Origin: Candidatus Jordarchaeia archaeon
GTDB taxonomy: Archaea > Asgardarchaeota > Jordiarchaeia > Jordiarchaeales > Jordiarchaeaceae
DNA: 24,996 bases
Assembly: GCA_029856435.1 (NCBI GenBank)
Contig: JAHQXB010000033.1
Location: 1 to 24,996, forward strand
Reading direction: 5' to 3'
Part shown: positions 4,830 through 22,891 of the stretch, in pieces
Layout of the letters: every line of letters begins with the position of its first letter
Numbering within the stretch: position 1 is the stretch's first letter
Program-made: the position numbers and the translations under genes
Notes under the pieces: generated by a model
Told to the model about the DNA's origin: nothing
Database searches by the model: none
Seen by the model: only the letters and a program-made list of their open reading frames with translations

Positions 4830-4896
4830 CGAAAGATTTAAATAGGGTTTTTGCTCATTTATATTTCAGGTATTATACATTATGTATTATACATAA
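4830..4896 (+). promoter_or_regulatory. Putative hsp20-cdc48 promoter (BRE/TATA) with downstream palindromic operator candidate
   Basis: CGAAA (4830-4834) then TTTAAATA (4837-4844). TATTATACAT occurs twice (4871-4880, 4885-4894) and forms overlapping inverted repeats ATACAT-T-ATGTAT and TATGTA-TTA-TACATA at about the expected transcription start. Confidence 0.5.
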
Positions 4897-4937
4897 AGTT
4901 TACTACATTGAATAAATCACCAGAGAGGTGTCAAACC

Positions 4938-5441
4938 ATGAACAGATTCGACGACATCTTCAAAGAACTAAGAAAAACATTAAGCGAGCAAGAATTCATA
5001 TTCGACCGCCTATTCAGAACAGTACTCGAACCAGACACCCAAGAGGCACAACTAAACCACAGCGTCTCAATACACATAGACCAAGACGGAAAACCAGTAA
5101 CCACATGGCTCGGAAACATAAACCTCAATAGAGACGCACAATTTGACGAAGCAGCGCAAACTCCATACACGGAAACCCACATAGACAAGGACGCCGGAAT
5201 CCTAATAATAGTTGCAGAACTCCCAGGCGTCTCCAAGGAAAACATCAAAGTCAAGGCCAGCAAGAGGAAGGTAACCATATCCGCAGAATCAGAAAAGAAA
5301 AAGTACTACAAGGAAGTGGACACGGAACGGGAAATTGACCCCAAATCCACCAGTGCACAGTACAAGAACGGAATCCTTGAAGTGAGAGTAAAGTTTAAGG
5401 AACCGCTGGAATCCGACGAGTTTGAAGTCGAGGTAAAATAA
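4938..5441 (+). CDS. hsp20: Small heat-shock protein, Hsp20/alpha-crystallin family (167 aa)
   Basis: IVAELPGVSKENIKV, SAQYKNGILEV and C-terminal EVEVK (IxI-like) motif. Start set at ATG 4938 after GAGAGGTG rather than at 4851. Confidence 0.95.
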   Translation: MNRFDDIFKELRKTLSEQEFIFDRLFRTVLEPDTQEAQLNHSVSIHIDQDGKPVTTWLGNINLNRDAQFDEAAQTPYTETHIDKDAGILIIVAELPGVSKENIKVKASKRKVTISAESEKKKYYKEVDTEREIDPKSTSAQYKNGILEVRVKFKEPLESDEFEVEVK

Positions 5442-5501
5442 AATAAAAAATTATATGTTTAGTTAAAAAAAATGTTTATTTTAAAAATTAATTGGTGGTG
5501 A

Positions 5502-7709
<2,208 letters not shown>

Positions 7710-7776
7710 GGTGGATGGTGTTTCCCATCCCTACCAATTTTTTTGCTTTTTAAGGAAAAAAGGTTGGTGTTTTAGG

Positions 7777-8502
7777 ATGGAGAGGGAAATTTCTCTTGAG
7801 GAGTTGATGTTCATCTTGGGTAATCCCACCAGGCGTAGGATTCTTCAGCTGCTTACCCAGGGAAGCCGCTACCCTTTTGAGATAGCTACCCAGCTCAAAA
7901 TTACTCCCAGGGCGGTTTCTCAGCATTTGGCTCTTCTTGAGGAGAAAGGTATTGTGAAGAAGAGGGTTGTTGAGAGCCCCATTGGTCCTGAGAGGACTTA
8001 CTACTATGTTGACACTTCACTATTTCTGTCTTTTAGCATTGCGCCTAACACTTTCAGAGAGATTCTGGAGGTGTTACCTGATGTCGTTGAGACGGACAGC
8101 GGCAAACTGAACCGTTTTCTTAAGGGGATTTACAGTTTGGAGAAAGTGCAGAGCCCTCTGGAAAAGCTGAGGAGGGGTGTGGAGTTGCTGAACAGTATAG
8201 AAGAGGAATTGATGGCTCTGCGGGAGGAGGAGAAGCGGCTGATTCAGTTCTCACAGATGATTTTCCGGGAGCTGGACCAGACGATTAGGGAATTTGGTCT
8301 TCTTCCCTATGCTGCTTCTTCGCTGCGGATACTGCTTGAGTCTGGGGGAGAGTGCCCCCTTTCCAAGATTTCCGAGCTCTTGGATGTGAGGGAAGAGAAA
8401 CTGATGCAGGCACTGAAAGAATCAGAGGAGAAGGGGATAATAAGAATAGAAACCTCCAAGAAAGACAATAAATTTGTGCTGCGCCTCGGCAAAAAGGACT
8501 AA
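7777..8502 (+). CDS. ArsR-family winged-helix regulator, Phr/HSR1-like heat-shock repressor (241 aa)
   Basis: LGNPTRRRILQLL...AVSQHLALLEEKGIV...GPERTYY resembles Pyrococcus Phr as I recall it (LGNETRRRILFLL...AVLEHLRILEEAGLI). Followed by a coiled coil and a second wHTH-like segment (LSKISELLDVREEKLMQALKESEEKGII). Start set at ATG 7777, not 7690. Co-oriented with hsp20 and cdc48. Confidence 0.85.
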   Translation: MEREISLEELMFILGNPTRRRILQLLTQGSRYPFEIATQLKITPRAVSQHLALLEEKGIVKKRVVESPIGPERTYYYVDTSLFLSFSIAPNTFREILEVLPDVVETDSGKLNRFLKGIYSLEKVQSPLEKLRRGVELLNSIEEELMALREEEKRLIQFSQMIFRELDQTIREFGLLPYAASSLRILLESGGECPLSKISELLDVREEKLMQALKESEEKGIIRIETSKKDNKFVLRLGKKD

Positions 8503-9072: not shown

Positions 9073-12000
9073 GTGGTTTTGATGGGCAGTAAGCAGCTTC
9101 CTTTTACTCAGGGTGTCGAGATAGAGCTTCAGATTGTGGATCAGAGTGGCAGTCTTCTTCAGGGTCAACCCCTAATAAGGGTTTGGGACCACTTGCTCAA
9201 GCGTGCGGCCGCCATGCTGGAGAAAAAGGTTCTTGAGGGGGCTCCCAGCATTGTGAGGGAAAGGCTGGTTCGTGTGGGGCGTGTGGAGAAGGAGCGTCAG
9301 GGGAGAAGGCTGCCCTACATTACTGTGAGCTACAAGATGCGTGGGGGCAAAAACGTTGAGATTTACGCCTTCGGACCGGATCCCAACATTAGCCAGGTTA
9401 CTTGGATTCTTGAGCTGGTAACCCCTCCCTGTGACACTATGGAGGAGCTGGGTTGGTGGATTAAGTCTCTTTACCGGGTTGCTCTGGACTCTTTGCCCAG
9501 CGGATACGGAATCATATCCATTGGCTTTAATCCTAAGGAGGCTGAGTATCGTAGTGGGGTCACCTTCGGCGACCACTACCATATTGGAGTGCCCGACAGT
9601 AGGGATAGGCTTGCTGCTTATAATGTGCTGCGTTGTTTTCTGCCCCACCTTATTGCGCTTTCTGTGAATTCCCCATTCATGAATGAGGGGCCCACGGGGA
9701 ATGTTAAGGTTAGGAAGACGCCTAGGGTCACCATTCTGGGCCAGAATAATGTTAGGAGTCTTAGGCTGAAGTTTAACAAGGGTCAGACTGGACCCGCGGA
9801 CAAAGATCACTATATTCCCTTTCTTGAGAGGCTTGACAGGAGGCAGTTTGACAAAATTGTGAGCAGGGAGCCCCCCGACGACCGGTTCGTGGATATGTTT
9901 CCGTTTACCGACTATGGAACGATTGAAATCCGAGTTTTTGATAGCCAGTTTAGTGTTTCGCGTAGATTGGCTCTGGTAGCAATTATTCAGGCCCTAGCCT
10001 ATAAGGCTGTGAAGCTTGCCAAGTCTGGCCAGAAGCTGCCAGACGTGAGCTCCGAGATTCTGGTGGACAATAGGGATAAGGCTATTGAGTTTGGACTTTT
10101 CGGAAAATTCTTTGGAGACGATGGTCTGAACGGTTCAAACAAGCAATTTGCAAAATACTATAATTTTGATCCTGCCACTGGGAAGCCGAATACAAAGCTT
10201 TTTGAAGCCGTTCAAAGTATGCTCAAGTTTATTCAGGATGAGGTTGAGGATCTGGGATTCCAAGAGTATCTCAAGCCAGTTTTAGCCTCTGTTATGGGAA
10301 CCAGCCAGCTTGAACCTCCCTGCTCACCTGCAGACTATCTTCTCTATCTCTACCACTCTTCGGGCGGAGAGTTTAAGAGAGTAACGTCAAACCTCATTAA
10401 GATGACCGAGGACTTTTGCACGAGCCTCGACGAGGATCCCATAACAAGACTCTTCGGAGCCCCTGAGATGGCAATGAAGGAAGCCGTTGCCACACCCGCA
10501 TCCGTATCCACTACACCACCAGCGGCCTCCGGCGTCACTGCGCCTATTGCTGTTCCTGTGTCCGCCTTTTCTGTGAAGGGCTCCGCGTCTGTGGGGGTTA
10601 AGCAGGTTATTGCTGGGGAGCGTATTCCCTTCCAGCTGAGCTTATCTTCAAATAGTAGTTCTGAGGCTCATGTCACGATTCTTGGAAAGGTTTTATCCAA
10701 AGAGGGTGATGAGGAAGCTGTTATTAGCACAGCGGTGAGGGAAGTTTCGCTCAAGCCAGGTAAAGAATCAACATTTAGGGAGAACAGCATTCCCCTTGCA
10801 GTGCCTTTCGGAGCCTTCTCTAAGCCCAAAAGTTGCTTCCTCCAGTTCACCGTTCGTGACGATGAGAAAAACGAGTTAACTAAAATAAAAACTGGCTCCT
10901 TTAGGGTAATTGCCACACCCAACATTTCAATTAGGCCCTCCTCCTTCTACAAAAAATTTGAAGAGGGAAAAACCTATGAGATGAGTTTCCAAGTGGCAAA
11001 CACCACCCCCCAATTCTCGGGAAAGTACCAGGTACGCATTTTCCACAAGTTTCCAAGTGGAGTTCTAAAACTTCAGACGGAGAAGAGTCTAACCAACCTT
11101 AAGGAAGTAAAAATCCCTCACAGTCTAAAAGTGGGGGGAGAAATCGCAAAAGAGGTGCATCTAAGAGTAAGAGTGCAGGTTCTCTACAAGGGAAGAATTG
11201 TAAGCGAGTATGAAACCCCAAACATAGAAATCCTCCCCAAGGCAGCACCAGAACCAGAACCTAAGAAACCAGAAATTAGGGTAATAACTAAACTCACTAC
11301 GGAAGCATACCCCCCACAAGCAGCTCCACGAGTAAAACCTGAAGTGACCGTGAAGCCCACACCAAGGACAACGCCTCAGCCAACACAGCCGAAGACTCAA
11401 CCTTCACCGCAGGTGCGCCCCCAACCTCAAAAATATCGGGCCGAAGGGGAGCCCACACTAAAATTGAAGGTGGTCACACCCACAGTGAAGACAGCGCCCC
11501 CAAAAAGGGTTAGACCCAAAGAGAAGAAAGTTAAGCCAGCAACCCCTGCGAAGGCATCTATGAAAACCAAGCTGAAAACACGCCCTGCAGTTAAGCCCAC
11601 CCGGGAAAAAGCCATTAAGCCAACACTGAGAGTTTTAGAGGCGAAGCCAACATCTTCCAAACAAGCTTCTGAAACTAAGGCATCCTATGTGAAAGTTACT
11701 CCAAATAGGGTGGTCAGCAGCCCCACGGCTGAAGGGTACGGAACGAGTCGTGCTGAAGCAGTCAAGGTGGCTGAGGTTGCGCCTGCAAAGGTGCCTGCTT
11801 GGCCTGCGGCGAAGAGGGTTAGGGAGTCGAAGGCGGTTGAGGTTTCTGCTGTTGAGCCGCCCAGAGTTTCTCTCCACATTAATTCTAAGGATAAGGAGTT
11901 AGTTCTGGGTTCCAGCTGCAATTTTGAAATTGATTTGAAAAACCTTAATCTGGACGTTACTGGAGATTTCTGGCTGAATCTCTACTATTGCCCATCTGGC

Positions 12001-13206
12001 GGAGACGAGGTTCTTGTAGGCCACAAGAGGGTTAAGCTGTTTGATAAGAAGAGAGTTGGGTATAGGTTTAAGATGGAGGGCGCCCCGAAGGCTAAAAGGT
12101 TTAAACTTAGAGCTGAGGTTATCTACAATGGGATGGTTGTTGAAAAGTCTGAGTCTGTAGAGATTCAGGTAAAGTCGCCAGAAGTGAAAAAAATGTTGGG
12201 GCTCCGGGGGATTCTCAATGTTCCCCAGAACATAATGCCCGGTGTCAGAATTCTTCCCCTGCTTCAGGTTAATGCGGGATATGTGCTGGAGCCCGTTAAT
12301 GTTTCCGTTAACCTTGAGGTTTCCTCCCAAGAAGCAAATATTCAGAAGGAATCTTACTTCTACACTATTCGGGAGGATGGAACATATTTTCTGCCCATGC
12401 CCCTGAGAGTTAGGGGTATTCCTTCCGGAGCGAATAAAGTTTCTCTGGAAGCCAGTCTAAATGTGGGGAGCGTAAATATAGGTTCAAAGAGAGCTTCTAT
12501 TCCCGTAACTCAGCAAGCTTCTCCTATAGAGGTTACTCCACCCTTAATTCAGGGTAATTTGAGTGCTGGAGAAACCACCAAATATTTGCTCAGGGTTAAG
12601 AACAATGCGGAGAAAAACCTTTCCATAGCCGCAGACTTCACATTTCTACCTCTAAACTCAAAGGAAATTCACGTTGGGAGTACTCGTTTAAAGCTTAATC
12701 CCGGAGAGCAGAGGCAGATGGAGGAAAGCTTTACTCCGCCTCTTTACACCGCGGATAGGGAAGGCTTCCTAATAGCCAAGCTTTCCTACAGCTTGGAGGG
12801 CAAGGTTGAGGAGTGGATCTCTTCCCCCAAACTTCAAGTTTCCCATCCCCAGTCAACTCCCCTAGAAATAAAAGTTAGGGGAACGCCTCACATTCCCAGT
12901 ATTGTGAGAAGCAACGATAAAGTCAACCTAGAAGTAGTGATAAAGAAAAAATATGAGGGAGGGGAACTCAAGGTTCAAGTCTACGCCATAGGTGAAGAGG
13001 CACTAGGAGAAATTAGGAGCATAAATGTTAAGCAGAGGGAGGAAACCAAAAGTTATGGCCCCTTCTCTTGGAGTGTGCCCAGGGTTCCTTACCGCACCAA
13101 GTATATTTTAGATGCTTGGGCGACTGAAAAAGGTCAACTTGTTCCAAGCCAGCTGATAAAAAAGGAAAAAGTGGAAATAGTTGTGCTACCACGAGAACCA
13201 GACTAA
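9073..13206 (+). CDS. 1377-aa fusion: GCS2/YbdK-family carboxylate-amine ligase + beta-sandwich-like domains + Pro/Lys-rich linker
   Basis: N-terminal ligase motifs FTQGVEIELQIVD, ILELVTPPC, TFGDHYHIGV, LPHLIALSVNSPF, YGTIEIRVFD. Low-complexity P/K/T/A region at about aa 723-928. Flanking regions are beta-rich with LKPGK/LNPGE turns. No signal peptide or TM helix is evident. Start is GTG 9073 or ATG 9082. Confidence 0.9.
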   Translation: MVLMGSKQLPFTQGVEIELQIVDQSGSLLQGQPLIRVWDHLLKRAAAMLEKKVLEGAPSIVRERLVRVGRVEKERQGRRLPYITVSYKMRGGKNVEIYAFGPDPNISQVTWILELVTPPCDTMEELGWWIKSLYRVALDSLPSGYGIISIGFNPKEAEYRSGVTFGDHYHIGVPDSRDRLAAYNVLRCFLPHLIALSVNSPFMNEGPTGNVKVRKTPRVTILGQNNVRSLRLKFNKGQTGPADKDHYIPFLERLDRRQFDKIVSREPPDDRFVDMFPFTDYGTIEIRVFDSQFSVSRRLALVAIIQALAYKAVKLAKSGQKLPDVSSEILVDNRDKAIEFGLFGKFFGDDGLNGSNKQFAKYYNFDPATGKPNTKLFEAVQSMLKFIQDEVEDLGFQEYLKPVLASVMGTSQLEPPCSPADYLLYLYHSSGGEFKRVTSNLIKMTEDFCTSLDEDPITRLFGAPEMAMKEAVATPASVSTTPPAASGVTAPIAVPVSAFSVKGSASVGVKQVIAGERIPFQLSLSSNSSSEAHVTILGKVLSKEGDEEAVISTAVREVSLKPGKESTFRENSIPLAVPFGAFSKPKSCFLQFTVRDDEKNELTKIKTGSFRVIATPNISIRPSSFYKKFEEGKTYEMSFQVANTTPQFSGKYQVRIFHKFPSGVLKLQTEKSLTNLKEVKIPHSLKVGGEIAKEVHLRVRVQVLYKGRIVSEYETPNIEILPKAAPEPEPKKPEIRVITKLTTEAYPPQAAPRVKPEVTVKPTPRTTPQPTQPKTQPSPQVRPQPQKYRAEGEPTLKLKVVTPTVKTAPPKRVRPKEKKVKPATPAKASMKTKLKTRPAVKPTREKAIKPTLRVLEAKPTSSKQASETKASYVKVTPNRVVSSPTAEGYGTSRAEAVKVAEVAPAKVPAWPAAKRVRESKAVEVSAVEPPRVSLHINSKDKELVLGSSCNFEIDLKNLNLDVTGDFWLNLYYCPSGGDEVLVGHKRVKLFDKKRVGYRFKMEGAPKAKRFKLRAEVIYNGMVVEKSESVEIQVKSPEVKKMLGLRGILNVPQNIMPGVRILPLLQVNAGYVLEPVNVSVNLEVSSQEANIQKESYFYTIREDGTYFLPMPLRVRGIPSGANKVSLEASLNVGSVNIGSKRASIPVTQQASPIEVTPPLIQGNLSAGETTKYLLRVKNNAEKNLSIAADFTFLPLNSKEIHVGSTRLKLNPGEQRQMEESFTPPLYTADREGFLIAKLSYSLEGKVEEWISSPKLQVSHPQSTPLEIKVRGTPHIPSIVRSNDKVNLEVVIKKKYEGGELKVQVYAIGEEALGEIRSINVKQREETKSYGPFSWSVPRVPYRTKYILDAWATEKGQLVPSQLIKKEKVEIVVLPREPD

Positions 13207-13216
13207 TCTCTGCTTT

Positions 13217-14545
13217 TTATGAGGGCTCCTCAGCCACGAAGGTTGAGGGCGTAGTTTTAACTGCGATGGCAAACCTTTGTGCCAGAGTGTCGTACCACTT
13301 CCATAATTGGCCGAAATCTGTGGCTTTGAGAAATTCTCCTCTGCCCAGCTCTGCCATTTTTTGCATTAGTTGAACGTCTGCTTCACCCAGCCCTACACAG
13401 TAGAGCACCCAGTTGGACTGCCCTGAGAGGAACTTTTTTATTGCGGGGATGGGGTTTACTGGTATGCCTTGGTCTGGGTCTCCCTTGTTGGGCATTCCAT
13501 CGCTTAGAAGCACCATCATCACTGGGGACGGCACACCTGTTTTTGGGTTTGGTGGGAATCCTTGTGCCAGCTCTGAGGCTAATTTGAGTGCTCCACTCAT
13601 GTATGTTAGTCCGCTTCCTTCCTTGCATTTTTCTATTATGTAGTTTGCTATTGTTTCGAGGCCGATGTCCTTGCTTTCGCCTGTGCATTTTATTACTGTG
13701 CTTACGTTTCCATCTGCATCTGTTACTCTTAGTGGCTCAGCTGTGTCCGCAAAGGTTATGACCTGAACGTTTTCACCCCATCCTCTACCTATTTTGAGGG
13801 AGAGGTAGAGGAGAGTGGCGAGAGCCGCACTCTTTATTCTGCTCACCATGGCTCCTTCTTCCATGGTGATTATGAAGTCTTTTAGCTGTGGGGTTTCCTT
13901 AAGCCCTCTTCTCAGTCCCTCAACTGCCCCATCAGCGTTTATGACTCTCATATCCTGCTTCTGCATACTTCCAGAAACATCTATCATGAGTATGGCGTTG
14001 AACGTCATGTCCACTGCGGGAACAATTTCGAATGTTACTTCCCTCCCCGTTGGATCAATTATGGCTACATCTTCTGAGTATAGTTCTGGCTGTGTTTTCT
14101 GTATTCGGAGCTTGACGTGGCCGCACTCCGCATCTCTCCAATCTATTTCCAGATTCTTGTATATGGGCCTCTTCATCAGGAGGCGTGCCAAGTCGTCAAC
14201 ATGGTCGGCGACCCAGACTACAACTTCCTCCGTAGCTTGGCCAGCCATGGGTTCCACACCGATTTGAACACTTGTGACTCCACCTACCGCCTCCTTCCTC
14301 TTCACGGTGACTGTGTCTCCTTCTGAAACGTTTGCAGAGTCGAGAACCGAGCCATCAACCATTATGTATCCTGGAGCGCAATCGTTGCTCGATATAACTT
14401 GGGCTGCTCCCCAATCCTCATACTTGTTAATAAAAACTATTACATCAAAGTCGTCTGCGCCTATGGTTTGCATATCGCTCTTGTTCATGTAAGCTCTGCC
14501 GTCAGCCGCTCCAGCATTTATAATTTCTAACTGTATCGTTGACAT
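13217..14545 (-). CDS. Cdc48-type N-domain fused to a VWA domain (442 aa)
   Basis: VWA MIDAS motifs DVSGSM, GLTYMSGAL, LLSDG and YCVGLG. The first ~175 aa align with the N-domain of the Cdc48 in this window. AAAGGTG lies upstream of the ATG. Confidence 0.9.
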   Translation of the reverse strand: MSTIQLEIINAGAADGRAYMNKSDMQTIGADDFDVIVFINKYEDWGAAQVISSNDCAPGYIMVDGSVLDSANVSEGDTVTVKRKEAVGGVTSVQIGVEPMAGQATEEVVVWVADHVDDLARLLMKRPIYKNLEIDWRDAECGHVKLRIQKTQPELYSEDVAIIDPTGREVTFEIVPAVDMTFNAILMIDVSGSMQKQDMRVINADGAVEGLRRGLKETPQLKDFIITMEEGAMVSRIKSAALATLLYLSLKIGRGWGENVQVITFADTAEPLRVTDADGNVSTVIKCTGESKDIGLETIANYIIEKCKEGSGLTYMSGALKLASELAQGFPPNPKTGVPSPVMMVLLSDGMPNKGDPDQGIPVNPIPAIKKFLSGQSNWVLYCVGLGEADVQLMQKMAELGRGEFLKATDFGQLWKWYDTLAQRFAIAVKTTPSTFVAEEPS

Positions 14546-15710: not shown

Positions 15711-17339
15711 TTATGGGATTAGGATTTTTGGAAGTTGTTCGGCTTCTTCTCTGGTTTTGATTTCCTCCTGGTTGCCGCTGAAGATGATTTCGTGTATTAG
15801 TTTTGTGTAGAGTTTATTGTTTAGTATTGTTTTATGTGATGTTTCTTCCTTGAAGTCTTCCTCCCCTTGGAATAATTTTCCTGTAACGTTACACACGTTC
15901 AAAAACTCTCCTGCCTCATCCCTGCTCTTAACCACCACTATGACTTCATTAACCTGTGATGCTGTGGCTTTACCGCAGGACAGGTTTAGAACGAAGCTTT
16001 CACAGTCCACGTCGAAATTGGGGGAGAGTAAAACATCGTAAGTAACGTAGGTTAGCTTTTTTTCCGCAATGAGGGAGGATATTCTCAGAGATAAGGTTTT
16101 AAGGAACGCATCAGCATACTCGGAGGATAATCGGTGAAGTTTCCCATCCTTTGGGGTTCCCCCTCCTTCCATGGGCCATACTATGAATGGTTTAATTATT
16201 GATAGAAGGTTTCCTCCCAAAATACGCTGTATGTCTTGGGGTGTGCCTCCTATTTCTTCGCGGAACTCCCTTGTGAAGAGGTAGGAGAGAAAGTCTGTGG
16301 CTTGGGGGAGACTGAAGTAGTTGTAGTCTGTTCCGAATACAATTTTGCTTGACCAGTTGGGGACGCATCTCTTCATCTTTTTGAAAAAGAGGGGAACATC
16401 GTATCCTCTCACTCCCGAGGTTTCAGCATAGAGTGAGGGATCTTTGAAAAATTCGTAGAGCTCATCCCTGGTGTACTCCATTCCCGAGTGTCCCACTATT
16501 ATGGCGAAGTCGCTACTTCCCAGCTCCTCCCTAACTTCCTGTGTTAAACGGTAAATGTCTTCGGCGGTGCTGTAATACCTACAGTCGAAGAGCACTGGAA
16601 GGCCGTTCCTAGCCGCCGCGACCACAACCTTCCTCACATTTTCCGAGGTGACTTCGCTTAGAAATTTTTGGGAAATGGGATGAAGCTTTAATCCTCTGGC
16701 TCCCTGCTGAGTACATCTCTTTATTTCTTCGATTGCCTTTTCTCCCTCGTGGGGGTCGACTCTTACAAAGCCCAGCATTCTTAGGGAGTAGGGGAGAACT
16801 CTCGCTCGGCTCAGAACCATGTCGTTGGGAAGCTGGAAGCTGGGGCTAGTATTATAGGCTGTGGCGTCATTAAAGGGGAAAGCTACAAACTTGTCAACTG
16901 TCCAGCCTATGCTTCTTACCCCCGGAGCATCCTCGTGAAGCATATCCAACAGTGGGGGTGGCTTGGTGAAGGGCTCAGCAGGGACAAAGCAGTATTTCCT
17001 AGAATTTACCCTCATAGCCTTCACAACTTCAAACTGGAGCCTTTGATAGAAGTCTAGGGTAAGTTTCGGATTATTGATCCTGTAGGCTTTTTTTCCATAT
17101 TCCAGAACCTCCTCCCTACCAATGTGAGTATGAGCGTCAACAACATAGAAACTCACAGTTCTTTGGGAGGCATCCGGTTCCACCTCTGTATTTCCGCCAA
17201 TCTTGTCTTCGTCTGTCAATAGGAAAATCAAGATTTCAGCTCCTTGTCGACACTCTGCAACATAAAAAGAGTTAAATCCTCTTATTGAACCTTGCCATAC
17301 AAACACGCCGGCGATTTGGACTGTTACCATTCCCAACAT
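15711..17339 (-). CDS. Amidohydrolase-family (Amidohydro_2-like TIM barrel) metallohydrolase with C-terminal extension
   Basis: VVDAHTHIG, GFVRVDP, GARGLKLHP, IIVGHSG, LYAETSG, IVFGTDY. The true start is probably downstream (TTG 17231 after AAGGAG, or TTG 17219). Confidence 0.88.
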   Translation of the reverse strand: MLGMVTVQIAGVFVWQGSIRGFNSFYVAECRQGAEILIFLLTDEDKIGGNTEVEPDASQRTVSFYVVDAHTHIGREEVLEYGKKAYRINNPKLTLDFYQRLQFEVVKAMRVNSRKYCFVPAEPFTKPPPLLDMLHEDAPGVRSIGWTVDKFVAFPFNDATAYNTSPSFQLPNDMVLSRARVLPYSLRMLGFVRVDPHEGEKAIEEIKRCTQQGARGLKLHPISQKFLSEVTSENVRKVVVAAARNGLPVLFDCRYYSTAEDIYRLTQEVREELGSSDFAIIVGHSGMEYTRDELYEFFKDPSLYAETSGVRGYDVPLFFKKMKRCVPNWSSKIVFGTDYNYFSLPQATDFLSYLFTREFREEIGGTPQDIQRILGGNLLSIIKPFIVWPMEGGGTPKDGKLHRLSSEYADAFLKTLSLRISSLIAEKKLTYVTYDVLLSPNFDVDCESFVLNLSCGKATASQVNEVIVVVKSRDEAGEFLNVCNVTGKLFQGEEDFKEETSHKTILNNKLYTKLIHEIIFSGNQEEIKTREEAEQLPKILIP

Positions 17340-17809: not shown

Positions 17810-17940
17810 ATATTCCAGTTCCCCCCTTTGGAACATTGTTTGAATCCCTTGTTTTTATCCGGAAAATGTTTGGTGGATTTCTTATTGTTCTGTTATTTTG
17901 ATGTGGATTGCCGTGTTTGATGGGTTTGGAAGGTGGCGTT

Positions 17941-19509
17941 ATGAAGTTTGAGAGTATTCTTGCGGTTCCCTTTTTGTTGCCCTCCTCCGGAAGTTTGGTG
18001 ACTTCAAAGGATGTGGATAGTATAGAAATAGCGGTTGCACTGCTTTTAATTGAGGAGGAGAGAAAAAAGGAGGAGGACTTGGCCTCTATTTCCAAGTTTT
18101 TCTGTCCCCTCTGGGTTCACCCCCTTGATGAGAGTAAGGCTCTGGTCTTCGACGGTAGTGGGGTTTCCTCTTCAAAGATTAATCTCCAGATACTGGATAT
18201 TGATGTTCCCGTGGAACTCCGTAAGGGAGACTTTTTATCCTTTGTCTCGGGTCTTGAAAAGTATGTAAGGGAGGCTGTGTCTGATTACCAGTCGAAGCCC
18301 AGCGGTGTAAAATTGAGGGGGTGGCTGGGTGAAGATTTCGCTTCTGAGCTTAGGGAGCTTCTGCCCAAGATTGAAGAGTGGACTAATTTAAAGCAGTTTG
18401 AGGTAATTGAGCCCTCCTACACCATTAATAAGGAGTTTCTGGACGAAAGCAGCCTCGAGTGGTTTCCCAGTAGCACTCTTATCCAAAGAGAGAAGCAGAA
18501 ACATGAAGCAGCTCTAGAAATTATAGACGCTAGGATTAAGGAGGCTGTTGAACAGGTTAAAGCTATGAAAAGCGACTATAAGGAGAAGGAGAAGGAGCTT
18601 AAATCAGAATCCCAAGAAAAAATAGAGGCGGAAAAAGAGAAGAGAGACAGGCAGATTTCCAAGATTTCCGAGGCCACTTTTGACAAAAAAATGCCCCGAC
18701 CCGGAGCAAGCCTTGAAAAACTGGTGAATAAAATCTCGGAACATGGGGACACCGTTTGGAAAATGGTTGAATCCCAAGACATATACGAGATACTTGACGA
18801 AATAGGAGCCTTTATAGACACTGTCGACGAACTACAGGACTTCTTGGAACACCTTGAGAGAGAATACATAGCCTACAAAAGAGAAGTGGACAAATTCTAC
18901 TCAGACAAGGAAAGAGAAATAAAAAGAATCGAAGAAGAGTATCAAAGAACAGAGAAGGAAATCAAAGAGGATCTGGAAAGAAAACTCGAAGAACTGACCT
19001 CCAAAATAGAGGAATATGAAGAAGCCATAGAGAAGGCCGAAAAACTAAGAGAACAGCTAACCACAGCCTTCCACTCATGGAAGGAAAAAACCGAGAAAGC
19101 AATTACAGAATATGAGGAAAAAACCATACCCTTGAAGCGTTTACCAAGCAACCAACCCTTCCTAATTTTCATACCCCTGTACGTGGCGGAATACCAAAGA
19201 AAAGCCAAAAAAACCTATGGAGTAGTATCACCCGTAACCATCACTGATAAGATGCAGATAGTAAGACTAAAAGAAATCGGTAAACTTGCCCGTAACTACC
19301 AAGAGGAAATTGGGAAGGGCAAAACAAACAAGAATTTCGAGGAGGGCCTCAAAAAATATAACTACCTTCGAAACCCCCAAATCGCCCAAGAATTCTCAAA
19401 AGGAATGAACCTACTGGAAAGACGGGGAATAATCGACTCCAACACCGCATCCAAAGTTAAAAATGCATACGACCAACACTTCCGAATAGAACTAGAAGAA
19501 ACCAGATAA
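17941..19509 (+). CDS. Coiled-coil hypothetical protein (522 aa) with globular N- and C-termini
   Basis: Long E/K-rich helical centre broken by a Pro-containing segment (KKMPRPGAS). Start set at ATG 17941 after GAAGGTGG. No Walker motifs or TM helix. Confidence 0.88.
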   Translation: MKFESILAVPFLLPSSGSLVTSKDVDSIEIAVALLLIEEERKKEEDLASISKFFCPLWVHPLDESKALVFDGSGVSSSKINLQILDIDVPVELRKGDFLSFVSGLEKYVREAVSDYQSKPSGVKLRGWLGEDFASELRELLPKIEEWTNLKQFEVIEPSYTINKEFLDESSLEWFPSSTLIQREKQKHEAALEIIDARIKEAVEQVKAMKSDYKEKEKELKSESQEKIEAEKEKRDRQISKISEATFDKKMPRPGASLEKLVNKISEHGDTVWKMVESQDIYEILDEIGAFIDTVDELQDFLEHLEREYIAYKREVDKFYSDKEREIKRIEEEYQRTEKEIKEDLERKLEELTSKIEEYEEAIEKAEKLREQLTTAFHSWKEKTEKAITEYEEKTIPLKRLPSNQPFLIFIPLYVAEYQRKAKKTYGVVSPVTITDKMQIVRLKEIGKLARNYQEEIGKGKTNKNFEEGLKKYNYLRNPQIAQEFSKGMNLLERRGIIDSNTASKVKNAYDQHFRIELEETR

Positions 19510-19976: not shown

Positions 19977-20713
19977 CAGAGGCAGGCACAGTTTCCAAGC
20001 CTGTCAGTTTTAAAATCTCCAGAATTGGGAAACTTCACATGAACAACTTTTCCTGGCACTTATAGAGCCAAGGATCCTTATCCGCATTATTACACTTGCC
20101 CATCCAATTCTGATTATTAAAAACAGTCCGAATAATAATATCTATAAAGTTTCTCCCTCACAACTTTTTAGCTAAACCTAATGCTGAAGAATACTAATTG
20201 CACCTTGCTTGGAGCAGAATGGGCAGGGGTTGGTTATTCTAATTCATCATTCTACTTATAATTGTTGGTCTTATGACCATATTTCTAGAAGGAAAATATG
20301 AAAGTTTTTAACACCAAAAACACTCGCAGAGCAATCCTACTTGGATAAGCCACGCACCTTAATGTGGCTAGTTGTCCAATTTTAATTTTTTTCAAAATAT
20401 TCGTTTAAATCCTGAAAAATTTGCAAATTAACAGTATAAAATTGCAAAAAATTCACTAAGACAGCCCGCAAAAGTAAAAAAACAGAACTACAAAAGAGGA
20501 CTCCGTGATGGAAAAGTTAATAACTTGAAAAACCGTCTTAACTATACCACAGAACAGTTTAGGGAATGAGAGTGCCTAATGCAGAAGCTATTTCCACTTC
20601 GATGATAGATGAAACATTTTTGGCTGCGTTGACTGTTTCAAATAATCCACAAAAAGTATGTCGTCTTACATTTTTGTATATGTGAATCACTCGAAGTAAA
20701 GGATGGTTTGATT

Positions 20714-21424
20714 ATGAAGGATGAAGAACGTGAAACAAAAAAGGGTGAAGAGAACTCAGAAGATGGGGGCGAGGAAGGTGATGATGATAGAGCGGCACTG
20801 AAACTTTTAGTGCAGCTCCTAGAAAGCGAAAACGATGAGGAACGCTCAAACGCCGCAGAAGCCATAGCGGACTACGCCGTAGGGGGACTCACCGACCAAT
20901 CCGCTTTACCCAAACTCGTAAAACTTCTAGATGACCCAAGCCAAAATGCGCGTATAAACGCCGCCCTCGCATTATCCAACTATGCTAACCAGGGATTCGT
21001 GGAACAGTCAATCCTTCCTAAACTGGTAAAACTGCTTGAAGACCCACAAGAGGAGATAAGAGTGTTTTCCGTACCAGCCCTCAGCGCCTACGCCTCCAAG
21101 GGGCTCACTGACCCGTCTGTACCATCCAAGCTTGTGAAACTTCTGGAAGGAGACGAAGAGGTACGCCTGTTCACACTGGCAGCCATAAAATCATATGCCA
21201 CAGCTGGACAAGTGGACAGAGTGGCTCTGCCCAAACTTGTGGAACTACTCGATGATGAAAACGAAATGATACGATTACAAGCCCTACAAGTCCTACGAGA
21301 ATACACGTCCAGAGGACTGACGGACAGTTCCGCCCTGCCAAAACTCGCCAAACTGGCAGAGGACGAATACCAAGACGATGAAATCCGCTCCATAGCCACA
21401 GAACTCCTCAAAACTGCGAAATAA
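20714..21424 (+). CDS. HEAT-repeat protein (six ~36-aa repeats) with acidic N-terminal tail
   Basis: Repeat consensus ALPKLVKLLxDxxEExRxxAxxALxxYAxxGLTxxS, seen six times. Start is ATG 20714 or TTG 20708. Confidence 0.9.
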   Translation: MKDEERETKKGEENSEDGGEEGDDDRAALKLLVQLLESENDEERSNAAEAIADYAVGGLTDQSALPKLVKLLDDPSQNARINAALALSNYANQGFVEQSILPKLVKLLEDPQEEIRVFSVPALSAYASKGLTDPSVPSKLVKLLEGDEEVRLFTLAAIKSYATAGQVDRVALPKLVELLDDENEMIRLQALQVLREYTSRGLTDSSALPKLAKLAEDEYQDDEIRSIATELLKTAK

Positions 21425-21922: not shown

Positions 21923-22891
21923 GTGGTGAGATGGATAGAGATGGATGAAGAATTGAAGAGAGAGTTAAGCAGAGATGAGCAGGAGATTGTGGAACTTGTG
22001 GAAAGGGCTGTGGAAGGCTTCGCGAATATTGAAGATTGGGAATTTGAGGGCGAGACTTTGAGGCTTTTCTCAGACCTGAACCTTTATTTCACCATTGATT
22101 TTGCGGATGGAAATCTCCACTTATACTCTGAAAGTAACTATGGAATATCCGCTCCGCAGGGTGACACGGTGGAGGAATTGGCCAACTGGTTCAGAGAATA
22201 CGCGGAACAAATAGAGAAGGAAAACAGGAGAATGATTGAACTGGGATTTGTACCTGGAGAAGTTGACCACGACAATGTATACAACATTTTTTGTCTCTAT
22301 CGCAAAACCTACCCCTTTAAACAATTGAACGATCTGAAGGAAGACCTGAAAAAACTCTCCTCACTCTGGGACGAGTTGGACAAAGACTGGAAAAGACTCT
22401 GCCCCGAATACCAATATTTTGGCAATCAAGAAGATTACCTGTGCGAAGACGAAAGAAGGCTGGAAGAACTGGTAGAACAATTGGAAGATCAGGATAGACA
22501 GACCCAGCTTAACGCTTTAATAGCGATTGGGGATTATGCCATCGACGGATTTACCACAGAGTCCGCTCTGCCAAAACTAATAAAGCTACTAGACCATGAG
22601 GACGAAGAAATACGGATCCAAGCAGCCTACGTACTTGGAGACTACGCCACTGGAGGACTCACAGTTGACACCGCCCCGCCCAAACTCGAAAAACTACTAG
22701 ACGAAGAAAACGAAAAAGTACGCGGAGGAGCAGCATACGCCCTAGCTACCTACGCTCACCAAGGACTCACAATCAAATCCGCCCTACCCAAACTGGCAAA
22801 ACTATTTAAAGAAAGCGCAAGCGAAGAAACCCGCGACTACGCAGCATACGCCCTAGACGAATACGACGAAAGAGGACTAAAACTCAAATAA
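21923..22891 (+). CDS. Two-part protein: acidic alpha/beta N-terminal domain + four HEAT repeats (322 aa)
   Basis: The C-terminal ~145 aa carry the same ALPKL.KLL...E.R..AAYAL..YA..GLT repeat as the upstream gene. The N-terminal ~175 aa are unassigned. Confidence 0.88.
   Translation: MVRWIEMDEELKRELSRDEQEIVELVERAVEGFANIEDWEFEGETLRLFSDLNLYFTIDFADGNLHLYSESNYGISAPQGDTVEELANWFREYAEQIEKENRRMIELGFVPGEVDHDNVYNIFCLYRKTYPFKQLNDLKEDLKKLSSLWDELDKDWKRLCPEYQYFGNQEDYLCEDERRLEELVEQLEDQDRQTQLNALIAIGDYAIDGFTTESALPKLIKLLDHEDEEIRIQAAYVLGDYATGGLTVDTAPPKLEKLLDEENEKVRGGAAYALATYAHQGLTIKSALPKLAKLFKESASEETRDYAAYALDEYDERGLKLK

Follow-up and report, generated by a model that had tools for sequence, protein, structure and literature searches.

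The closest known counterparts of the N-terminal half of the protein described here are the N domains of Cdc48, p97 and VAT and of their kin, NSF/Sec18, PEX1/PEX6 and the UT3 domain of UFD1. Von Willebrand factor A (vWA) domains occur in writer/eraser triads such as TerY-P (a vWA protein, a kinase and a PP2C phosphatase) and ArnA/ArnB with their kinases, and both the PafA ligase and Dop of pupylation possess a glutamine-synthetase/GCS-like fold. The window analyzed in this study, a stretch of 24,996 nucleotides (contig JAHQXB010000033.1 of GenBank assembly GCA_029856435.1, positions 1 to 24,996), comes from Candidatus Jordarchaeia archaeon, a member of the Asgard archaea, which are the closest prokaryotic relatives of eukaryotes. 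At nucleotides 13217–14545 of its minus strand lies a gene (P0001) specifying a 442 amino acid protein, here called Cdc48N-vWA, in which a Cdc48-type N domain is followed by a vWA domain. On balance we favor the view that this protein is the docking subunit of an undescribed Asgard module containing, in addition, a ligase and a hydrolase, the function of which would be reversible amide tagging.

The gene was defined by an open reading frame (ORF) opening with ATG and by its translation, and it has full-length homologs of 42–99% identity in Asgard metagenome-assembled genomes (MAGs). Residues 1–88 (nucleotides 14282–14545, minus strand) form a double-psi beta-barrel and residues 89–176 (14018–14281, minus strand) a beta-clam subdomain packed against it, as in the N domains of Cdc48, p97 and VAT; a vWA domain with the expected alpha/beta fold occupies residues 179–430 (13256–14011, minus strand). 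Pfam places CDC48_N at residues 14–84 (35.5 bits against a cut-off of 35.1) and gives weak matches to VWA and VWA_2 between residues 185 and 414. Among 59 members of the family, CDC48_N was matched in 47 and the vWA families in 57. An earlier reading of this DNA, referred to below as the original prediction, had proposed that both N subdomains were present, using three hand alignments to a Cdc48 encoded in the same window. All three were reproduced when the profile of the 59 members was compared with that of residues 1–200 of this Cdc48 (Probab=83.9% E-value=7.8e-6, 126 columns), and the alignment, which pairs residues 14–154 with Cdc48 residues 20–149, reaches into the second subdomain. AlphaFold2 returned pLDDT values of 87.4 for the whole protein and 90.0 for the N domain alone.

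The residues of the metal ion-dependent adhesion site (MIDAS; DxSxS...T...D) are all present in the sequence: the motif D189-V-S-G-S193 is encoded at nucleotides 13967–13981, T314 at 13604–13606 and D349 at 13499–13501, each on the minus strand. D189, S191 and D349 are invariant in the 59 sequences, and S193 and T314 are found in at least 90% of them, in agreement with the intact MIDAS originally proposed. The site is retained in clades A, B and C of the family and lost only in fused copies. After DxSxS comes a family-specific insert (residues 196–235; 13841–13960, minus strand), modelled as two helices (205–214 and 219–226). The protein ends at residue 442, after the vWA domain, and no AAA family was matched (Pfam, E-value up to 1), which bears out the claim that it lacks an ATPase. 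Neither the D1/D2 AAA+ modules that follow the N domain in Cdc48 and VAT nor the ubiquitin-interacting motifs (UIMs) that follow the vWA domain in Rpn10 were found, and no other ubiquitin-binding family was matched at this same Pfam threshold. NCBIfam gave no match above noise, while feature and shape searches of the ESM Atlas led to nothing beyond the cluster of the family itself and clusters of a generic vWA kind. As part of the overall explanation to which we incline, Cdc48N-vWA appears to be a soluble, non-catalytic docking protein of two domains, the first joined to the second without a linker.

A word-indexed search yielded 91 relatives aligned over their full length, at the identities given above, nearly all of them in named Asgard MAGs (Jord/Frey, Sigyn, Loki/Promethearchaeota, Heimdall, Hod and Odin). 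An exhaustive search of 1.84 billion representatives gave only 92 relatives with E-values of up to 0.001; the named distant ones were again mostly from Asgard archaea (Thor, Hel, Odin and Sigyn), with single MAGs of Korarchaeota and Thermoplasmatota. In genome searches the family is almost confined to the Asgard archaea, being present in 188 of 301 genomes of the phylum that were at least 80% complete (match E-value up to 1e-25), or about two thirds. The taxonomic families are unevenly populated, some being full (e.g. 63/71, 78/92, 15/19 and 9/9) and others empty (0/27, 0/14 and 0/9). Identity between Asgard lineages is 42–73%, and the clades group largely by lineage. The window genome contains four copies: the gene described here, paralogs on contigs C76 (38% identity) and C150 (33%), and a copy inside an 888 amino acid ORF on contig C89. 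Heimdall-type members (e.g. P0038 and P0045; loci L003, L022 and L030) carry tails of 40–70 residues highly enriched in Glu and Asp, with ..EEDY or ..DEY at the very end in some of them; such tails are absent from the other clades. The fusion had been presented as an uncharacterized family, and no description of it was found in the literature on Asgard Cdc48/VWA proteins, on von Willebrand domains and ubiquitin, or on DEPDC5/GATOR1/Iml1 in archaea.

The conserved partners of the gene are two enzymes. The first is a giant GCS2-type carboxylate-amine ligase (9073–13206, plus strand, convergent with the vWA gene; Pfam GCS2, E-value=1.6e-10) with its ligase domain at about residues 1–470, followed by beta-rich repeats; its nearest solved relative is YbdK. 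The second is a metal hydrolase of the Amidohydro_2 family (15711–17339, minus strand; Pfam, E-value=1.6e-12), the likely true start of which is M37, at about nucleotide 17231. D68, H70, H72, K218, H220, H284 and D338 are invariant in the hydrolase family, for which sequence searches found no relative in the PDB at E-values of up to 0.01. Linkage was assessed in 68 non-redundant loci using a neighbor window of 10 kb, 38 of these loci having full flanks, that is, at least 5 kb on both sides. One or both enzymes lay within 10 kb in 48 of the 68 loci, and both were present in 30 of the 38 with full flanks. Gene order varies by lineage, the membership of the trio being constant: the Jord/Frey arrangement is hydrolase, vWA and convergent ligase, and the Hod/Thor-type loci examined (L033 and L045) have a co-directional hydrolase-ligase-vWA series in which the hydrolase and ligase genes overlap. 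Paralogous clade C (31–33% identical) is accompanied by ligase and hydrolase copies of its own. The window genome has only two GCS2 giants, each beside a family member; of its three closest hydrolase copies, two adjoin a family member and the third is fused to one.

The ligase was detected in 62 of the 101 Asgard-phylum genomes surveyed for it. Family by family, its presence or absence agrees with that of the vWA family, the sole mismatch being a family with one genome sampled for the ligase; this match covers the vWA family and the ligase, in genomes that are kin rather than independent samples. The ligases of the Jord/Frey, Heimdall and Hod/Thor types have 500–900 extra residues of beta-rich repeats, and a Loki-type family has forms of 550–590 amino acids. 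In one large Asgard family (f9) the vWA-family ORFs are of ~700 amino acids, with an N-terminal extension belonging to no Pfam family, and the GCS2 ligase ORFs of 550–590, so that it looks as if the other partner carried the extra region. In the three genomes of f9 that were compared by coordinates the vWA and ligase genes are 10–25 kb apart on one contig.

Two natural fusions were found. The 888 amino acid ORF mentioned above (P0211; contig C89, L072:16-2682, plus strand) unites hydrolase, Cdc48N and vWA, and aligns with the hydrolase family at Probab=99.75% E-value=2e-27 (hhalign); it belongs to a cluster (P0183) whose members are named as Jord/Frey MAGs. The fused copy has lost H220, H284 and D338 of the hydrolase as well as the MIDAS (DVSEI), and is probably inactive because three invariant hydrolase positions and the metal site are gone; its residues mark it as probably a double pseudo-enzyme. 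The other fusion, P0166 (962 amino acids, metagenomic), joins a vWA domain to a GCS2 ligase domain (BLASTP E-value=8e-51 over 523 residues). It is situated at a contig end (L076:8001-10889, Ga0366824_1000311), and its neighbors encode N6/N4 DNA methyltransferases, Mom, TGT/QueC/QueF-like proteins and proteins with TIR and SLATT domains, a setting that suggests a mobile or conflict system for this distant relative of the vWA-ligase pair. The possibility of a defence system, prompted by this context, was rejected: none of the four sequences compared with PADLOC (the vWA protein, ligase domain, hydrolase and P0166 itself) had a match at E-values of up to 0.01, and the clades of the Asgard family largely follow Asgard lineage.

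A complex of the vWA protein with residues 37–542 of the hydrolase was modelled with alignments supplied for both chains. The median ipSAE was 0.67, the best of three controls reaching 0.00; the runs shared at least 56% of contacts and the partner had a pLDDT of at least 77. As a rough calibration, 58 of 80 solved complexes scored at least as high as this mark, as did 2 of 110 mismatched pairs. On the side of the vWA protein the predicted interface comprises N-domain loops 41–44, 72–76 and 98–102, the inter-domain linker, residues 205–214 of the insert (specifically 205–206, 209–210 and 213–214) and residues 249–256. On the side of the hydrolase it takes in the stretches next to the invariant active-site residues, namely 74–108 (after H70/H72), 174–183 (after N172), 222–228 (after K218/H220) and 287–291 (after H284), and D338 itself; in the model, these positions make up the catalytic face of the barrel. 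A conserved acidic loop (residues 41–46; 14408–14425, minus strand), which reads E-[FYW]-[ED]-D-W-G in most of clade A, is predicted to touch the hydrolase beside its HxH motif, residues 41–44 contacting hydrolase residues 74, 90 and 174–178. The loop is kept in the members linked to the ligase and hydrolase and is degenerate in the ubiquitin-fused subclade described below. The MIDAS residues lie outside the predicted interface.

Four members of clade A (Hod, Sigyn, Loki-type and one other contig) bear a C-terminal ubiquitin-like domain, 49–57% identical to a free ubiquitin encoded nearby; its closing residues are ..PASTAG or ..PASTAGG, to which a short extension is added in some cases. Three of the four share a cluster (L077:2362-9764, L046 and L049, on Hod, Sigyn and Loki-type contigs) consisting of a coiled-coil gene, Cdc48N-vWA-ubiquitin, a facing gene for a 366 amino acid membrane protein that weakly matches RING at its C-terminus, JAB, E2, E1 and ubiquitin; in these loci neither the ligase nor the hydrolase is nearby. 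The contig of the fourth member ends ~0.9 kb past the gene, leaving only the first cluster neighbor visible. Predicted interface positions of the N domain match the clade consensus in 14 of 72 cases in the ubiquitin-fused proteins, against 250 of 640 elsewhere in the domain (Fisher p=0.0012), the corresponding figures for the non-fused sisters being 35 of 72 and 313 of 640. This is supportive of the loss, in the ubiquitin-fused subclade, of the surface predicted to bind the hydrolase. The ubiquitin-linked subclade is derived. No paper mentioning a vWA gene in Asgard ubiquitin clusters was found, and Hatano et al. (PMC9192718) do not mention one in the clusters that they describe.

The ligase-hydrolase-vWA module is probably a reversible amide-tagging device. 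The three N-domain loops (residues 41–44, 72–76 and 98–102) and the helical insert of the vWA domain would clamp the catalytic face of the hydrolase and leave the MIDAS free. The ATP-dependent ligase would write an amide-linked mark on a protein and the hydrolase would erase it, the marked protein possibly being the docking protein itself, at its acidic loop, or else a client held at the MIDAS. Such a logic can be likened to that of ubiquitylation or pupylation. We infer tagging rather than metabolism because the ubiquitin-fused sister subclade has swapped the ligase and hydrolase for a ubiquitin conjugation system with an amidase.

Several observations weigh against this proposal. Eight of the 38 loci with full flanks are without either enzyme, and three of these (L005, L016 and L017) are ordinary members of clade A, so the linkage is not obligate. 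In Heimdall archaea the enzyme pair is located 6–7 kb from the vWA gene, with unrelated genes in between, and the only vWA-ligase fusion, P0166, occurs on a metagenomic contig with an abundance of DNA-modification and TIR genes. The score of the predicted complex derives from a model and not from a measurement, and supports binding without showing it; its calibration is only rough, since our own alignments were supplied. The decay of the interface in the ubiquitin-fused proteins is not conclusive because the sample consists of four related sequences.

A metabolic role also fits the same data, GCS2 and Amidohydro_2 enzymes usually acting on small molecules. In such a pathway the ligase would make, and the hydrolase break, an amide metabolite, for instance a gamma-glutamyl amide or a compound that binds metal; gating of the hydrolase or the handling of a metal would fall to the vWA protein, and no protein would be tagged. 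Among solved proteins the ligase is nearest to YbdK, a weak gamma-glutamyl-cysteine ligase, and the position predicted for the vWA protein, over the active-site face of the hydrolase, is gate-like. We nevertheless regard this alternative as unlikely. The extra beta-rich repeats of the ligase, seen in the Jord/Frey, Heimdall and Hod/Thor types though not in the short forms of a Loki-type family, suggest that it is a protein scaffold and not an enzyme of metabolism; the exchange of both enzymes for a ubiquitin conjugation system in the sister subclade also weighs against a metabolic role, and no conserved transporter or further biosynthetic gene was present beside the module in the loci whose neighbors were examined.

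The likeness of Cdc48N-vWA to DEPDC5/Iml1 raises the question of its ancestry. Among 350,542 PDB chains the top full-length Foldseek match was DEPDC5 (9v0j_C, E-value=8.7e-11, 445 columns), and the top 16 included yeast Iml1 (8ae6_W and 8adl_W) and further DEPDC5 entries (9o5e_H, 9o5a_B and 9xzy), with 7t3b_A at rank 38. The N-terminal domain (NTD) of DEPDC5 has been likened to Sec18/NSF-N and its SABA domain to the Sec23 trunk domain (PMC8534245). In the family, too, a Cdc48/NSF-type N domain is followed directly by a vWA-like domain, and apart from DEPDC5/Iml1 no solved protein was found to combine these two folds in this order with their boundary in the same place. On the other hand, p97 N-D1 matches equally well (E-value=9.2e-11), the DEPDC5 match has a TM-score of 0.34 and a root-mean-square deviation of 10.5 A, with a different relative orientation of the domains, and the N domain is nearer to those of Cdc48, PEX1 and NSF than to that of DEPDC5. 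The full-length VIA-align list was filled by single vWA domains and gives no rank for DEPDC5.

Pfam IML1 (PF12257) and IML1_N (PF23013) had no match in the window genome at E-values of up to 10, nor were they among the 25 listed of the 33 Pfam families matched by the 59 members at that threshold. The SHEN, DEP and C-terminal domains of DEPDC5 are absent, no DEP family being matched in a protein that stops after its vWA domain. The conserved partners are enzymes and not longin proteins; no longin or NPRL2-like match was obtained in the window ORFs scanned, the rest of the genome not having been searched for NPRL2-like genes. Liu et al. (bioRxiv 10.1101/2020.10.19.343400) reported NPRL2-like proteins in Asgard archaea, the passages retrieved from their preprint naming no DEPDC5 counterpart.

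Small GTPase genes stand beside family members in three lineages. The C76 paralog (L074:204-1433, minus strand) is ~0.9 kb from a divergent gene for a 409 amino acid Gtr1/RagA GTPase (L074:2299-3594, plus strand), which is the best Gtr1/RagA match of the genome (PF04670, E-value=5.9e-24); the pair is retained in three other Jordarchaeia loci (L051–L053) and not in the Freyarchaeota chromosome locus L054. Heimdall copies adjoin a Ras-like GTPase in 13 loci, and eight Hod/Thor-type loci start with a small GTPase-like gene. Because Asgard genomes hold many small GTPases, these adjacencies are weak evidence and are offered as a lead only. That the front half of DEPDC5/Iml1 (NTD-SABA) has its archaeal forerunner in this family, with the organization of small-GTPase regulation as the family's task, is in our opinion quite improbable. 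We are doubtful, if somewhat less so, about a combined version, in which the family is the prokaryotic forerunner of NTD-SABA and the ligase and hydrolase constitute an ancestral amino-acid-linked tagging or sensing device beside Rag-like or other small GTPases. If the likeness reflected descent, the largest GATOR1 subunit, for which an archaeal counterpart is missing, would have one in this family, alongside the NPRL2-like and Rag-like proteins reported from Asgard archaea; if the forerunner idea were true, the core scaffold of GATOR1 nutrient signalling, and perhaps ubiquitin-independent protein amidation, would have arisen in Asgard archaea.

The original prediction had cast the protein as a Cdc48 adaptor or decoy, its ATPase-less N domain competing for or recruiting the cofactors or substrates of Cdc48 and its vWA domain docking on Cdc48 or another AAA+ protein. 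The Cdc48 that it saw nearby is indeed there (5508–7709, plus strand; CDC48_N, CDC48_2 and two AAA domains by Pfam) and is not a conserved neighbor. A Cdc48-type ATPase was encoded within 10 kb in 2 of the 68 loci, namely the window and a 98%-identical relative, and since the genome has four full-length Cdc48 paralogs its occurrence close to the vWA gene is unremarkable. The Cdc48 and vWA genes occupy opposite strands and are separated by the ligase gene and that of an ArsR-type regulator, and the model predicts that the surface of the N domain is taken up by the hydrolase and not by cofactors of Cdc48. No MoxR/AAA_3 gene was found among the window ORFs scanned, and no AAA+/MoxR family among the called neighbors of the nine loci with gene tables, the other loci having been screened with a Cdc48 query only. 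With the ligase and hydrolase as the conserved partners, genomic context lends no support to an adaptor or decoy role, which we consider very unlikely. The Hsp20, Cdc48 and ArsR-type helix-turn-helix regulator genes are co-directional (window 4851–8502), the ORFs of the latter two overlapping by 20 bases; this run is retained only in the 98%-identical relative (L009) and looks like a separate heat-shock unit.

A ubiquitin receptor or shuttle, a hybrid of UFD1 and Rpn10 with an N domain that binds ubiquitin or a ubiquitin-like fold and a vWA domain that docks on the proteasome or another machine, is just as improbable, since the window protein has neither a ubiquitin domain nor ubiquitin-system neighbors, no UIM or other ubiquitin-binding family was matched in it, the partners conserved with it are the two enzymes, and the ubiquitin-linked subclade is a derived one that has diverged at surfaces conserved in the clade of the window protein.

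Other genes adjoin the module. Nucleotides 17908–19509 (plus strand) specify a 533 amino acid coiled-coil protein without a Pfam family, which is retained near the module in Jord/Frey; identity is 65–94% in close relatives and 25% in L001 and L013, where the gene is on the opposite side of the ligase. Coiled-coil genes unrelated to it are likewise found beside the paralogous cluster (L073:8027-8578) and beside the ubiquitin-type cluster, and the window gene showed no similarity to a 452 amino acid gene beside the paralogous cluster. Downstream of the module are genes for two HEAT-repeat proteins (20708–21424 and 21923–22891, both on the plus strand).

Compared with the known systems, the explanation that we find the more persuasive is one in which the head domain of Cdc48 has been reused without its motor and joined to a vWA domain, giving a docking piece for two enzymes of amide-bond formation and cleavage. 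Relative to Cdc48 and UFD1, the vWA domain directly follows the N domain in place of the AAA rings or the UFD1 tail, and the surface of that N domain is predicted to hold a metal hydrolase in place of UBX, SHP or VIM cofactors, with no conserved link to Cdc48. In contrast to DEPDC5/Iml1 (Sea1; GATOR1/SEACIT), with which no sequence-level similarity was found, the family has an intact MIDAS, is devoid of the SHEN, DEP and C-terminal domains, and has a ligase and a hydrolase for partners instead of NPRL2/3. None of the vWA adaptors Rpn10, TFIIH p44/Ssl1 and archaeal ArnB possesses a Cdc48-type N domain; the family, for its part, lacks the UIMs of Rpn10 and the zinc fingers of p44 and has its own two-helix insert after DxSxS.

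The closest parallels in overall composition are with conjugation systems. As in ubiquitin E1/E2 with JAB and in pupylation, an ATP-dependent carboxylate-amine ligase is combined with a metal-dependent amidase and with a binding protein that is not itself catalytic, and a sister subclade is itself fused to ubiquitin inside a Ub-E1-E2-JAB cluster, so that in one branch Cdc48N-vWA serves the ubiquitin system itself. The module differs from both in that its hydrolase is a TIM-barrel Amidohydro_2 enzyme and not JAB or Dop, no tag protein was found for it and no proteasomal ATPase is linked to it. If it is true that it tags proteins, it would represent a third prokaryotic protein-conjugation chemistry beside the ubiquitin-like and Pup systems. 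Like the TerY-P triad and ArnA-ArnB, it keeps a vWA protein together with one enzyme that adds a modification and one that removes it; here an amide ligase takes the place of the kinase and an amidohydrolase that of the phosphatase.

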